DNA of 64,000 nt from an uncultured Chloroflexia bacterium (GCA_963774265.1 CAVZDU010000001.1:1408001-1472000), one strand, 5' to 3'. Shown: positions 56,187-61,080, counted from the first letter of the stretch. A program made the numbers and translations. Notes: a model not told the origin generated them from the letters alone.

Positions 56187-57209
56187 CTACGGCGCGCGCC
56201 ATTCATGCGGAATGCCCTTCGCGTCCAGCGCTGCTTCGTACTCTTTTAGATTGGCTGCAGTCACCACGTCTACGCCGGTGTCAATCACGCCATTCACTGC
56301 ACTCATCTCCGACAGTGCAGCCGTCGCACCTTTCTCGGCCATCAGCTTGATAAGCTGGACTGATTTGTAGCCCATGTTGTATTCGCGCTGGGCAATCGTG
56401 GCCGCGATGATGCCCATCTGGACACCGTGGATGATATCTGTCGTGGCATCGAATGTAATCAGCTTGATCTCACCTGCTGCGTCTGCATCTTGGATCGCTG
56501 TGACCCATGCTGGTCCGGTAGCGGCGTAAACCGCAAAGGCGCCGGCGAGGTCCGGATTGGCGGAGATGGTGGAACTGGCCAACTCCAGAGCGGTCGAGGG
56601 GTCCTCGCGATCGTTATAGGCCGCCAAAGCGACGATGCCTGATCCCGCGATGGCCGACAGAAATCCCTCTGTTCGTTGTAGTGCGTTTCGGGCCGTGTCG
56701 GAGCCGCGGCCGATGCCCACCTTGCCACCCCGTGGCAGCAGATCGACCATCTTCTTTCCGGCGATCTTTCCGGCGTTGACATTGTCGGTGCCGATATAGG
56801 CGAGAGATGCGCTTCCGTCCACGGGGGGCGTGTCCAAGGTGATGACGAGGATGCCCACCTCACTTGCTTTTCGGATAAAGGGCTCCAGTGCCAGAGGATC
56901 CGACGGCGCAATTGCAATTCCGGTGACCCGTTGGGCAATATAGGTCTCTAGGGTCTGGATTTGAGCAGCCACGTCTTCTTTAGGCGGGACAAAGAAGGCT
57001 GTCTGGACGCCCAACTCCGTTCCGGCAGCTTTCACACCGGCCTCAACGTTTGACCAATACGGGTGCACGGATTTGCCGATTACCACAATCTTCAGCGCCT
57101 CGGTTTTTCTCGCTGGGGCACACGCAGCAACACAGCCACCGGCCAACAGCACGCACAGCATGAGTGTCATTAGTTTGGACAGGCGCTTCGGCATCGTCTT
57201 GTTCTCCAT
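56187..57209 (-). CDS. RbsB-type sugar-binding lipoprotein (divergent from the sensory operon)
   Basis: Signal/lipobox, [41 protein letters not shown]-17-TATGAT promoter. Confidence 0.88.
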
Positions 57210-57261
57210 CGCGCGATCATACTACTGCCATTGCTTGCATACAAACCGGTGAATGCCCCTG

Positions 57262-57300
57262 AGGGGATTTCCCCTAACACAATATCGGGTTTTTGCCCCA
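57262..57300. promoter_or_regulatory. Two candidate response-regulator boxes (GGGG-N4-CCCC)
   Basis: AGGGGATTTCCCCT (57262-57275) and weaker CGGGTTTTTGCCCC (57286-57299) between divergent promoters. Confidence 0.55.
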
Positions 57301-57354
57301 AGCGCCGTCCACGTTGTCGTTTGCCTGGCGCGCCTGAGATGCTATAATCTGGCC

Positions 57355-58413: not shown

Positions 58414-58415
58414 CT

Positions 58416-59495
58416 GTGCACGACTTCGAGACCCCGTGCGGAGGGATGCCGGTGACTGACGCCCCAACGGCTGCGCCCCCCGAATCGTTCTCAACGCCTG
58501 CGCGCCGCTTCTTACTCGATCGCTTTTGGCAGGGCAATGCTGGCCGCCAGATTTTCGTCGCAGCATTTCTGTTTCTCCTTATTGTGACCTTATTCAGCCT
58601 CAGTTCGGATGCTTTCCTGCGCTCAAAGAATCTGGCGAATCTTTCTCGAAGTTTCTCGTGGCTGGCCATTGTCGCGATCGGCCAGAGCATGGTTATCATC
58701 ATGGGCGGGATAGACCTGTCCGTCGGTGCGACGATGGCCCTGGCAGGACTGGTGGCTGGTCGTTGCATGCAACTTGGTTTTCCGATAACCCTGGCCATCC
58801 TGCTGGGGCTACTGGTCGGCGTCGTTATTGGCTGGTTCAATGGTGTCCTGGTCGCCCGTTTTCACCTGCCTGCATTCGTAGTCACCCTGGGGACGATGGG
58901 TATTCAGCGCGGTTTTGCATTCGGCCTAACCGGCGGCTGGTCGGTCACCAACATGCCCGAAGCGTTCCTGCAGTTGGGTCAGTCGGATATTGTGCTTGGT
59001 CCGTGGATTGTGCCGGTTCCGCTGCTGATCACCCTGACGGTGGCCCTTTTGCTCAGCCTGTTCTTGCGGCGAACTGTCATGGGCGGCGACATCTATGCGA
59101 TGAGCAGCGGCGAGCGAGCGCTGCTTGTGTCCGGCGTTAACGTGATGCGCCTCAAGGTCTTCGTTTACACTTTGTGTGGCTTGCTGGCGGCTGCCGGCGG
59201 ATTGCTCCTGGCAGCACGCCTCGGCGTGGCGGCCCCTGCCGCTGCCGTTGGCACTGAGGTCGATGTGGTGGCGGCGGCCGTCATCGGCGGGGCCAGCCTG
59301 TTTGGGGGCGTCGGCAGCATCCTGGGGGTACTCCTTGGCGCGGCCATCACCCAGATGCTGAACAACGGCCTCATCCTGCTTGGTTACCCTTCCTACTGGC
59401 AGACAGCGGCGATCTGCGCGCTGATGCTGGTAACGGTCCTTCTCGATTACTGGCGGCGGCAACGCCAGGTGGCAGCGCACGGAACCTCTCCTTAA
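58416..59495 (+). CDS. RbsC-type sugar ABC permease
   Basis: GGIDLSVG, PAFVVTLGTM, AAAVIGGASLFGG. Confidence 0.9.
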   Translation: MHDFETPCGGMPVTDAPTAAPPESFSTPARRFLLDRFWQGNAGRQIFVAAFLFLLIVTLFSLSSDAFLRSKNLANLSRSFSWLAIVAIGQSMVIIMGGIDLSVGATMALAGLVAGRCMQLGFPITLAILLGLLVGVVIGWFNGVLVARFHLPAFVVTLGTMGIQRGFAFGLTGGWSVTNMPEAFLQLGQSDIVLGPWIVPVPLLITLTVALLLSLFLRRTVMGGDIYAMSSGERALLVSGVNVMRLKVFVYTLCGLLAAAGGLLLAARLGVAAPAAAVGTEVDVVAAAVIGGASLFGGVGSILGVLLGAAITQMLNNGLILLGYPSYWQTAAICALMLVTVLLDYWRRQRQVAAHGTSP

Positions 59496-61080
59496 AGCCC
59501 GCAATCTGTCGCTGAGCATCGGCACGCTGCCGCTGATTCACGAGGTGAGCCTCGAAATCTTACCCGGCGAGGTGTTGGGCGTCGCGGGTCAGAGTGGGGC
59601 AGGGAAGTCGGTGCTGGCGATGCTGCTTGCCGGTGTCCAGACACCCGATGCTGGTGAGCTTGTGTTTGCCGGACGACGGCTAGACTGGCCTTTCCGTGCT
59701 CGCAATCTTGGAATCGAAGTCGTTCACCAGCAACCGGAGATGGTTGAAGGGTTAGACATAACGGGCAACGTGTTCCTGGGAAACGAGTTGGGCTGGTCGC
59801 CGTGGGGCCGCTGGCTGCGCGTGCCCGACCGTCGACGCATGGACGTCGAAGCCGCGCGCATCCTTGCTGATCTGGGGATGCGGTATCATTCCCTGCGTGA
59901 ACGGGTGTCTAACCTGACGGGCGAGCAGCGGCAACTTATCGCCATTGCACGCGCAATGACGCATCCCGCCCGGCTCATCATTATTGACGACCCAGGTCTT
60001 TTGTTGAGCTATCCCTACCAACAGAAGTTGCTTTCGTTGATCCAGGCGTGGCGTAGCCAGGGCGCCGCCGTGCTCTACGGCAGCGACAATGTCGATCATC
60101 TCATGGCCGTCACCGATCGTATCCTGGTCCTCCGCCACGGCCGCTGCATCGCACAGCGCGTCACCGAGGAGACGGATCGCGAGCAGATCTTGGCCGCCTC
60201 GGTTGGTGCAGCGGACCAGCAGGAGTTGACGCCGATCATCTGGGCCCTGGACAGCTATTATCGGGCCAGGGAGCAGGCGGAGAAGCTCAGCAGCCGGCAG
60301 AAGGTGTTGGAGCGCGATCTTGGCGCACCGGAGTTGAACCGGCAGATCATCGACCAGTTGGCCGATCAGGTTAACGTGCTTGACCGGGCGAACGCGGCCC
60401 TACAGGAGGCACAACGCCGGCTGTTATCCGAGCTCGAGCTGGAGCGCAAGCGACTCGCCCGCGAGATCCACGACCAGGTCATCCAGGATCTGCTGGCGGT
60501 GGGCTATCAGCTGGAAGAGCTCGAGTCGGGCCCTGCCGTGACGCCCAGGCTCGAGGAAGAGCTGCAGAGCGTGCGGGCTGATGTGCGCAACGCGGTGAGC
60601 GACCTGCGCAACATCTGCGGCGAGTTGCGCCCGCCGACCATCGACAGCCTGGGGCTAGGACCGGCGCTGCAGTCCTTTGTGCACGAGTGGAGCAAGCGTA
60701 CCGGCATTGCAGTCAGCATGGTGCTCGACCCTAATCTGGGACGCCTGCCGGAGTCGACTGAGTTGTCGATCTTCCGCATCGTGCAGGAAGGGCTCAACAA
60801 CGTGCGCAAGCACGCCGCCGCGCAGCAGGTCGACATTCAGCTCAAGCATACCTCTCCTCGACGCCTCCTGCTCACCATCGCCGACGACGGCCGGGGCCTG
60901 GCTCCGGACTTTGATCCTTCGCAGCTGTCGGCCGAAGGACACTATGGGCTATCCAGTATCAGCGAGCGTGTGGCTCTCCTGGGCGGGCGTTGGAAGCTCC
61001 AGAACCGGCCCGAGGGGGGCGCACTCATCCAGGCCGAAATCCCACATCCGCGCATTGAGCCAACCTCCCCGGATAGCTGA
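59482..61080 (+). CDS. Degenerate ABC ATPase domain fused to a HisKA_3/HATPase_c histidine kinase; start uncertain
   Basis: EPLLKARNLS...GQSGAGKS; LTGEQ; IIIDDP; then ERKRLAREIHDQ, QEGLNNVRKHA, ADDGRG, HYGL. Confidence 0.88.
   Translation, partial: EPLLKARNLSLSIGTLPLIHEVSLEILPGEVLGVAGQSGAGKSVLAMLLAGVQTPDAGELVFAGRRLDWPFRARNLGIEVVHQQPEMVEGLDITGNVFLGNELGWSPWGRWLRVPDRRRMDVEAARILADLGMRYHSLRERVSNLTGEQRQLIAIARAMTHPARLIIIDDPGLLLSYPYQQKLLSLIQAWRSQGAAVLYGSDNVDHLMAVTDRILVLRHGRCIAQRVTEETDREQILAASVGAADQQELTPIIWALDSYYRAREQAEKLSSRQKVLERDLGAPELNRQIIDQLADQVNVLDRANAALQEAQRRLLSELELERKRLAREIHDQVIQDLLAVGYQLEELESGPAVTPRLEEELQSVRADVRNAVSDLRNICGELRPPTIDSLGLGPALQSFVHEWSKRTGIAVSMVLDPNLGRLPESTELSIFRIVQEGLNNVRKHAAAQQVDIQLKHTSPRRLLLTIADDGRGLAPDFDPSQLSAEGHYGLSSISERVALLGGRWKLQNRPEGGALIQAEIPHPRIEPTSPDS

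Follow-up and report, generated by a model that had tools for sequence, protein, structure and literature searches.

Introduction

That a transporter can act as a sensor is a known principle in bacteria, and it takes several forms. In ChvE-VirA (with GguAB), LuxPQ, and TorTS, a substrate-binding protein (SBP) binds the periplasmic domain of a kinase. PstSCAB-PhoU-PhoR and MalK-MalT are noncovalent relays that run through adaptors or regulatory domains, and their transporters are active. PstSCAB is the subject of a further paper (PMC12976172). In Bce modules, a histidine kinase without a sensory domain of its own relies on an ATP-binding cassette (ABC) transporter as the actual sensor (PMC9169098, PMC11109136). 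In Ks-Amt5 (PMC5764959) and Sd-Amt1 (PMC11152129), an Amt-like transporter is fused to a signaling output (sensor kinases, cyclases), and the SLC5-STAC kinases CbrA and CrbS are likewise transporter-kinase fusions (PMC7096432, PMC9100948, PMC5715377), PMC7096432 being a study of the transport and kinase activities of CbrA. A 2024 survey for prokaryotic transceptors presents kinases with a 5TMR-LYT/S-component fold as the first case, and the available passages of that survey contain no mention of a fusion between an ABC nucleotide-binding domain (NBD) and a kinase (PMC11109136). Here we describe such a fusion, encoded in a stretch of 64,000 nucleotides (nt) from an uncultured Chloroflexia bacterium (GCA_963774265.1 CAVZDU010000001.1:1408001-1472000), hereafter the window. 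Positions are coordinates of the whole window; the region studied, 56187-61080, holds four genes by open reading frame (ORF) and domain profile searches, which encode an SBP, a response regulator, a permease, and the NBD-kinase fusion.

We propose that these genes probably encode a two-component sugar sensor with a receptor built from the parts of a CUT2-type ABC importer, which in the window's clade would no longer transport. An initial reading of this DNA, made from the sequence alone (hereafter the sequence-only reading), had arrived at a similar idea and knew of no characterized example. In agreement with it, no account of a histidine kinase fused to an ABC NBD was found in the literature searched, where the one paper to name both ABC_tran and HisKA_3 is a Streptomyces genomics preprint; within that literature the point of fusion is unprecedented.

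Results and Discussion

A conserved family of NBD-kinase fusions in the Chloroflexota

The fusion gene occupies 59479..61080 on the plus strand, counted from a conserved N terminus at 59479 (ACG); its first canonical in-frame start is GTG 59545. Numbered from that GTG, profile searches place ABC_tran at residues 1-150, HisKA_3 at 300-364, and HATPase_c at 406-502. ABC_tran is the sole N-terminal domain. The protein has no hydrophobic segment (maximum Kyte-Doolittle value, 1.33) and is thus soluble. As the sequence-only reading had claimed, the kinase has neither a transmembrane (TM) segment nor a sensory domain of its own, which hydropathy and the domain search both bear out; no other recognized sensory input domain was found by the two methods. 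With one NBD and a kinase, the fusion differs from the CUT2 ATPase of about 500 residues with its two tandem NBDs, and the NCBIfam RbsA and XylG models match it with their first halves only.

The sequence-only reading had called for a search on the domain architecture and had allowed that the fusion might be absent from other genomes. In a word-indexed search, ABC_tran, HisKA_3, and HATPase_c occurred together in 119 of the 120 best matches among 2796 significant proteins; these 119 are about 528 to 552 residues long, and one of the best 120 is a 473-residue fragment. An exhaustive search of 50%-identity representatives recovered only a few full-length clusters, namely P0122, P0124, P0125, P0126, and P0171, the last at 31% identity. 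Relatives of the fusion are encoded in 231 species genomes (one genome per species), from which 80 loci were kept for the neighborhood analyses below. All 80 are from Chloroflexota, among them Anaerolineae orders, Caldilineaceae, Ardenticatenaceae, Promineifilaceae, Roseiflexaceae, and Limnocylindrales. An even sample of the phylum gave a full-length match in 25 of 400 other genomes, including genomes of one to three contigs, and the window's own genome carries a single copy. The fusion is a conserved Chloroflexota family, present in independent assemblies that include complete genomes.

These data also dispose of an artifact of assembly or annotation, in which a frameshift or a chimeric contig would have made one ORF out of two separate genes. 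We reject this explanation and consider its chance negligible: a single ORF of about 530 to 535 residues is found in 119 of the 120 best matches, in 80 of 80 independent-assembly loci, and in complete genomes, and the length of the linker between NBD and kinase is invariant.

Two more distant architectures were seen in the same searches. P0143 and P0167 read NBD-PAS-PAS-HisKA_3-HATPase_c, at about 840 residues, and P0171 is a 539-residue NBD-kinase with a canonical Walker B Glu and H-loop His.

A degenerate NBD joined to an intact kinase

The four NBD motifs singled out by the sequence-only reading (GQSGAGKS, LTGEQ, IIIDDP, and SDN) are read directly in the window fusion, all on the plus strand: Walker A GQSGAGKS at 59587..59610, the degenerate signature LTGEQ, with Glu for the second Gly of LSGGQ, at 59914..59928, Walker B LIIIDD, with Asp at the catalytic-Glu position, at 59974..59991, and SDN, without His, at the H-loop position (60082..60090). 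We counted their conservation over 123 full-length homologues. The Walker A P-loop (GxSG[AS]GK[ST]) is retained in 122, the Q-loop Gln in 120, and the Walker B Asp in all 123. The signature reads LSxEQ in 122, and Glu at its second-Gly position is a hallmark of the family. At the H-loop position His occurs in none, Asp in 66, Asn in 51, and other residues in 6; the residue after the Walker B Asp is Asp in 104, Glu in 10, Asn in 6, and another in 3. The proposal that Glu-to-Asp and His-to-Asp replacements are conserved therefore holds only in part. The H-loop His is missing from all 123 homologues, but Asp replaces it in only 66, and Asp stands at the catalytic position in 104. The true hallmarks of the family are the signature Glu and the missing H-loop His rather than the Glu-to-Asp change.

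The kinase, on the other hand, is intact. Its phospho-accepting His (60469..60471, plus strand) lies in a HisKA_3 H-box, HDQVIQ, that also contains DxxxQ, the phosphatase motif of HisKA_3 kinases, with the H, D, and Q each in 123 of 123 homologues. The HATPase_c catalytic domain (60655..61044, plus strand) keeps its N-box, DxGxG, and GxG; none of the 123 lacks the kinase His, DxxxQ, N-box, or DxGxG. This pattern of conservation indicates family-wide selection on the degenerate motifs of the NBD, next to kinase motifs that remain intact.

CFTR G551D, a defect that blocks ATP-dependent NBD function, places an acidic residue at this position of the signature, and mutation of the catalytic Glu or the H-loop His severely cuts hydrolysis in model importers. 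The NBD is predicted to be non-hydrolyzing, because it has a signature Glu, lacks the H-loop His, and usually lacks the catalytic Glu, while it keeps the P-loop, Q-loop, and Walker B Asp. The same motifs bear on the idea of a working transporter that also signals, in which residual ATPase activity imports sugar and the kinase reads the transport cycle, so that flux is sensed. SBP, permease, and NBD are all present for such a machine, the family conserves Walker A, the Q-loop, and the Walker B Asp, and a catalytic Glu survives in 10 of the 123 homologues. We nevertheless hold flux sensing to be improbable, given that no homologue has the H-loop His, that 122 carry the signature Glu, that changes at these positions impair CFTR and model importers, that one lineage has lost Walker A, and that a canonical uptake operon stands next door.

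Between the two domains, a WALDSYY motif and a helical linker, or coiled coil, lead to the phospho-accepting His (60226..60468, plus strand). Among the 181 sequences in which both landmarks were found by pattern, 173 have a spacing of 77 residues from the Trp of WALDSYY to the His, while 7 have 76 residues and 1 has 80 (22 further sequences, missed by the pattern, are not in the count). A fixed length is what a helical, register-dependent coupling would require. An AlphaFold2 model of the fusion, built with 46 homologues (mean pLDDT, 77.9), has a confident NBD at 1-241, a poorly defined hinge at 244-258, helices at 250-278, 284-348, and 355-382, of which the middle one bears the phospho-accepting His, and a catalytic domain at 392-521; the linker corresponds to the first two helices. 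In a Foldseek comparison of this model with the PDB, no solved chain spanning both NBD and kinase was among the matches listed (ranks 1-50), which were single NBDs with at most 268 aligned columns.

A proposed receptor assembled from importer parts

The partners of the fusion are those of a sugar importer. The SBP gene (56187..57209, minus strand) encodes an RbsB/AlsB-like sugar-binding protein (Peripla_BP_4, E 3.7e-54) of 340 residues, the presumed ligand receptor. It has a single N-terminal hydrophobic segment (residues 9-34) and, up to a Cys, the sequence LLAGGC, which we take to be a lipobox; the protein is probably lipid-anchored. The best NCBIfam rows for it, which are rhizopine, allose, and ribose binding proteins, all fall well short of their cut-offs. 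In close relatives its orthologues are 60 to 68% identical and divergent from the regulator gene.

The permease gene (58416..59495, plus strand) encodes an RbsC/GguB-like protein of 359 residues (BPD_transp_2, E 1.7e-38) with multiple TM segments, for which GguB, RbsC, and AraH are the best NCBIfam rows, again below cut-offs. With Peripla_BP_4 and BPD_transp_2, SBP and permease have the profile-search features of a CUT2 importer, and no other ATPase gene adjoins the permease in the window. An EAA-like loop in it, SSGERALLVSG, aligns with GGNPEAAQLSG of the neighboring GguB-like permease, and E233, L236, and G240 are invariant in 22 permease orthologues. The ORFs and domains are arranged as the sequence-only reading had it, with the SBP gene divergent from an operon of regulator, permease, and fusion.

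How regularly these genes travel together was judged from the 80 loci, classed by what lies directly upstream of the fusion; 74 were informative and 6 too short for classing. An orthologous permease, 46 to 73% identical, is upstream in 25 loci, and an orthologous permease and then a binding protein in 14, so that 39 of the 74 have this permease directly upstream. Elsewhere there is a regulator only, with no permease (23 loci), a distant permease that ends a complete transporter operon (5), none of these arrangements (6), or, on a cut contig, a binding protein only (1). In two loci (L008 and L016) a single ORF, of 710 and 705 residues, respectively, encodes both permease and binding protein, which links the latter to this permease. 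In loci such as L027, the divergent canonical transporter operon contains a 53%-identical paralogue of the permease as well, which we read as a duplication.

Single-NBD ATPases of 254 to 299 residues adjoin RbsC-like permeases at L047:3536-4300 (minus strand), G000:C9:90026-90745, and C1:384400-385062. CUT2-like importers with a homodimeric, nontandem ATPase thus exist in the phylum, and they are a plausible source of the fusion's single NBD.

Contact between permease and NBD was assessed by complex prediction with permease residues 40-359 and NBD residues 1-250, each with its own alignment, against three controls. The pair scored 0.50 and the best control 0.00, a verdict of weak support. Of 80 solved complexes 58 reached the mark, as did 2 of 110 mismatched pairs; those that reached it at 0.60 or less were only 7 of the 80 and both of the mismatches. 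The prediction runs share at least 92% of contacts, with a partner pLDDT of at least 81. The PDB contains no sequence relative of the window permease; TMD-NBD (TM domain-NBD) pairs of other ABC families have been solved, and likeness to them may contribute to the score. This prediction covers the permease-NBD pair of the larger assembly that the sequence-only reading had proposed for modeling.

From these parts we propose the following mechanism. The lipid-anchored SBP would capture an extracellular monosaccharide and dock on a dimer of the RbsC-like permease, the cytoplasmic face of which would bear two copies of the NBD-kinase fusion in place of an ATPase. Each NBD would bind nucleotide and the coupling loop of the permease without a hydrolysis cycle, and docking of the loaded SBP would alter the geometry between the two NBDs. 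The fixed-length linker would relay this change to the HisKA_3 bundle and switch its balance of kinase and phosphatase activities. The phosphoryl group would then pass to the two-receiver, NarL-type regulator, which would bind a GGGG-W(2-4)-CCCC palindrome at its own divergent promoter and upstream of ChvE/GguAB-like uptake operons. In such a design the signature Glu and the absent H-loop His would make NBD closure reversible and hydrolysis-free, and closure may even be nucleotide-independent, given the one lineage without Walker A.

A quite different input would be cytoplasmic. The NBD could serve as an ATP/ADP-binding or dimerization domain that senses nucleotide or energy status independently of the membrane, with the linked ABC genes as its regulon. 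A soluble fusion would suit this role, as would the locus L090, where the fusion has no ABC neighbors, and the distant variants P0143 and P0167 with PAS between NBD and kinase. We consider it very improbable all the same, in view of the partnerless permease immediately upstream in 39 of 74 loci, the conserved EAA-like loop of that permease, a complex prediction that passed, if weakly, against zero-scoring controls, and the fixed linker length; the loss of Walker A in one lineage argues against nucleotide sensing as the core function.

Several observations weigh against the dedicated receptor proposed above. Walker A is lost in the 50%-cluster representative P0124, so nucleotide binding may be dispensable, and the catalytic Glu retained by 10 of 123 members and by the copy in the complete genome G231 makes residual hydrolysis possible. 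The permease-NBD prediction passed only weakly. Identity between the SBP of the sensor and the ChvE-like SBP of the adjacent transporter is only 24%, and the sensed ligand may differ from the transported one. No triple fusion of permease, NBD, and kinase was seen, as 0 of 33 proteins longer than 895 residues carry both ABC_tran and HisKA_3, though this is weak evidence. Gene order is a further difficulty. The synteny of permease and fusion, proposed for checking by the sequence-only reading, is present in the 39 loci noted above but breaks down in 29 of 74, which have no dedicated permease (23 with regulator and fusion adjacent and 6 with neither directly upstream), and in 5 of 74 the permease upstream of the fusion is the distant one of a complete transporter. 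In the near-complete genome that contains L090 (G223:C1:6007500-6022500) the fusion stands alone, with no match to regulator, permease, or binding protein within about 6.5 kb on each side and no palindrome in the stretch. Because of the permease-less loci and this lone fusion, a dedicated receptor complex is not family-wide, and in much of the family the NBD must use the permease of a neighboring transporter or none. Finally, translation from GTG 59545 would remove the first beta-strand of the NBD, and the window copy may be weakly expressed or defective.

The permease-less loci lead to the alternative that the fusion NBD docks on the permease of the neighboring canonical ChvE/GguAB-like (or RbsABC-like) transporter, where it would compete or alternate with the ATPase, or on that ATPase itself, and reports the transporter's activity, as BceS does for BceAB, the dedicated permease being a later specialization or a mere membrane anchor. 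Nearly all of the 29 loci lie beside a complete sugar ABC operon, and the Q-loop region is conserved across all synteny types. In a quick maximum-likelihood tree, effectively unrooted because the branch to its sole outgroup, P0171, is 7.3 changes per column long, the arrangements show strong clustering and the permease-less type forms one well-supported clade of 24 rows. For these 29 of 74 loci the neighbor reading must hold in some form. As the general explanation we find it rather unlikely: the window's clade has an ATPase-less permease directly upstream, fused to an SBP in two loci, the presumed kinase homodimer would need to displace a tandem-NBD ATPase entirely, and a hydrolysis-dead NBD could not sustain the flux of that transporter.

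Returning to the dedicated receptor, we offer one reconstruction that covers both kinds of locus, to which we would give slightly less than an even chance. A complete SBP-dependent importer would have become a nontransporting "ABC receptor kinase," in which the docking of the SBP is read as an NBD-NBD rearrangement by the attached kinase. The permease-less lineages would represent a shared state, in which the kinase-NBD plugs into the transporter that it regulates.

The regulator, its candidate operators, and the adjacent uptake operon

The regulator gene (57355..58413, plus strand) encodes a NarL/FixJ-type response regulator of the order REC-GerE HTH-REC (receiver, helix-turn-helix, receiver), with two Response_reg matches and one GerE match. 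It has the acidic pocket, phospho-Asp, S/T, and Lys of that type along with its GerE-type HTH, and the C-terminal receiver is extra. Both receivers retain their DD, D, S/T, and K residues in 58 of 58 orthologues. Its start is most likely ATG 57355, not 57253, since orthologues align from 57355 and a promoter-like site ends at 57348. That site (57321..57348, plus strand), TTGCCT-16-TATAAT, has 10 of 12 matches and a TG before the -10 box and lies 7 nt before the ATG. The mRNA of the sensor operon is probably leaderless, because the TATAAT box ends 7 nt before the regulator ATG (57343-57357).

Of 49 loci, 40 have the palindrome GGGG-W(2-4)-CCCC no more than 260 nt upstream of the regulator gene, most commonly 55 to 80 nt away from its start codon. 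The 80 loci together span 1.03 Mb and contain 69 copies, of which a single one falls inside a coding match. A second recurrent place, seen in ten loci, is within about 200 nt after the kinase stop, upstream of the ChvE-like SBP gene. The window contains exactly two copies, at 57263 and 61127: predicted operator 1, GGGGATTTCCCC (57263..57274), between the SBP and regulator genes, and predicted operator 2, GGGGTTCCCC (61127..61136), between the kinase stop and the ChvE-like SBP gene. The center of each lies about 87 nt before the transcription start that a TATAAT box would imply; operator 2 is about 75 nt upstream of an extended -10, TGTTATAAT, which was identified by eye and is absent from the promoter scan output.

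The 5.5-Mb genome has 21 copies, three of them within 9.5 kb here and all three intergenic. The third, GGGGTTTTCCCC, is at L085:6227 (G000:C1:1474726), beyond the window and upstream of a second ABC operon. Outside this locus, the nine copies examined, those with a spacer of 3 or 4 A/T, are mostly inside ORFs or hairpin-like; a further nine have a two-base spacer. In the complete genome G231, from another family, the palindrome stands before a ChvE-GguA-GguB-regulator cluster, and the fusion follows downstream in convergent orientation. Its occurrence both at the regulator promoter and upstream of the uptake operon links the two, and we infer that the regulator binds the palindrome, controls its own expression, and controls the adjacent ChvE/GguAB-like uptake operons.

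Another candidate operator was rejected. The 11-mer GCGCCTGAGAT (57330-57340 and 61115-61125) has 4 one-mismatch matches where 2.54 are expected and was unseen in other loci. The exact 11-mer occurs only twice in the window, once in each promoter region.

The presumed regulatory target begins with a ChvE-like monosaccharide-binding protein (61301..62434, plus strand; ChvE model, 238 bits against a cut-off of 460), the first gene of the adjacent uptake operon. A GguA-like ATPase gene follows (62616..64000, plus strand) and continues past the window end; within the window it encodes a first NBD (NBD1) with canonical motifs and then an insert derived from an SBP. The canonical sugar ABC operon proposed by the sequence-only reading is thus confirmed for the Walker A, Walker B Glu, and H-loop of the GguA-like protein, but not for its overall form, an 853-residue ORF with an insert. 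Its NBD1 signature reads LGVGK. The ORF is uninterrupted (L085:2117-4678, in G000:C1) and consists of NBD1, an insert of about 360 residues, and NBD2, and an ORF of the same length is found in a second genome bin (L001:7360-9921). The insert derives from a ChvE-like binding protein, matching Peripla_BP_4 profile positions 68-257 and then about the first 68 positions of another domain, and it is 62 to 73% identical to the middle of tandem binding proteins common in Anaerolineae. Among the best 120 matches listed for the insert, none has ABC_tran. A genuine in-frame insertion, a gene put out of action, or an assembly error common to both genomes could account for it.

Tandem fusions of ChvE-like proteins are themselves widespread (P0271-P0390), at about 710 to 765 residues (two domains by size) or about 930 to 1130 (three by size), and the few that are source-named are Anaerolineales relatives. 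In the second ABC cluster beyond the window (L085:6786-10327), a 618-residue protein with two Peripla_BP_4 stretches stands with ABC_tran fragments of 196 and 170 residues, which look like a frameshifted ATPase gene. At the other end of the locus, a terminator-like hairpin (56142..56178) with a 16-pair stem and a T-rich tail separates the 3' end of the SBP gene from a thioredoxin-reductase-like gene upstream.

The start codon and the state of the window copy

The conserved N terminus of the fusion begins 22 codons upstream of GTG 59545, at 59479, and overlaps the last 17 nt of the permease gene. The frame upstream of the GTG is open and encodes ...EPLLKARNLSLSIGTLPLIHEV, a normal first NBD strand. 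At 59479-59481, where 80 of 80 homologous loci have ATG, GTG, or TTG, the window has ACG (Thr), and there is no other canonical start between the upstream stop at 59431 and GTG 59545. The ACG could reflect a mistake in base calling, a near-cognate start whose use is coupled to the permease stop that overlaps it, or damage to the allele. Nine public sequencing runs, with no RNA run among those listed, share at most 0.09 of the sampled words, and four of them, compared at 85% likeness, yielded short contigs of relatives only, none of which covers 59411-59814.

These facts raise the prospect of a decaying or silent allele, in which loss of the start leaves the sensor absent or N-terminally truncated and misfolded. 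In addition to the codon itself and the lack of a canonical substitute, fragmented ABC_tran ORFs lie nearby, and the genome is 84% complete with 5.65% contamination. Yet the 532-codon frame is otherwise open, 87% identical to its closest relative, and intact in all motifs, the ACG may be no more than a miscalled base, and the overlap with the permease stop could permit coupled reinitiation at a near-cognate codon. On balance we think decay unlikely, though it is a possibility to be taken seriously for this copy.

Comparison with known systems

If the proposed receptor is real, the motor domain of an importer serves as a sensory input, which would explain how a soluble kinase without a sensor responds to an extracellular sugar. 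The fusion would also be a natural reporter of NBD conformation uncoupled from hydrolysis, where the transmission of SBP docking has so far been seen mostly through trapped states. For sugar uptake in the Chloroflexota, the locus supplies a regulator, a candidate operator (GGGG-W-CCCC), and presumed target ChvE/GguAB-like operons, and the varied arrangements, with the permease shared, duplicated, or fused to the SBP, are material for studying the route from transporter to receptor.

The system works like known cases of transporter-based sensing and has the defining features of none of them. As a kinase, the fusion is of the HisKA_3 (NarX/DesK/LiaS) type, with the H-box His and DxxxQ, the N-box, G1, and G2. 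It resembles the Bce modules in its proposed transporter-based sensing, in a kinase without a sensory domain, and in the presumed control of a transporter operon. The Bce kinase, however, is a separate membrane protein that contacts the permease, whereas the kinase here is soluble and covalently joined to the NBD; BceAB has an active ATPase, an FtsX-type permease, and no SBP, in contrast to the degenerate NBD, RbsC-like permease, and SBP of this locus. In place of the FtsX-type permease with a large extracellular domain and the two-TM kinase that define the Bce type, we found a BPD_transp_2 permease and a soluble kinase.

Like the Amt sensors, the locus appears to have repurposed a transporter module as a receptor covalently joined to a signaling output. 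Those sensors fuse the membrane domain and have no ABC machinery or SBP, whereas here it is the cytoplasmic motor domain of a multisubunit importer that is fused. CbrA and CrbS share with it the joining of transporter and kinase, a NarL- or NtrC-type output, and, as presumed for this locus, control of nutrient uptake, but they carry secondary transporter domains joined through STAC, while the fusion carries an ABC NBD and has probably lost transport. Both the Amt and the SLC5-STAC kinases have a membrane transporter domain in the kinase polypeptide; in this locus the permease is encoded by a separate gene. The kinases with a 5TMR-LYT/S-component fold are likewise proposed prokaryotic "transceptors" related to an ABC (ECF) component. 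Their link is a shared membrane fold recognized by structure comparison, whereas here SBP, TMD, and NBD are recognizable by sequence and the NBD is fused.

As in ChvE-VirA, a periplasmic sugar SBP would feed a two-component system, and a ChvE/GguAB-type transporter is regulated or neighboring. Unlike ChvE-VirA, LuxPQ, and TorTS, this kinase has no extracytoplasmic part, and the signal from the SBP would have to cross the permease and the NBD. Like PstSCAB-PhoU-PhoR and MalK-MalT, the system would relay the conformation of an importer NBD to transcriptional control; unlike them, it would do so through a covalent link between NBD and kinase.

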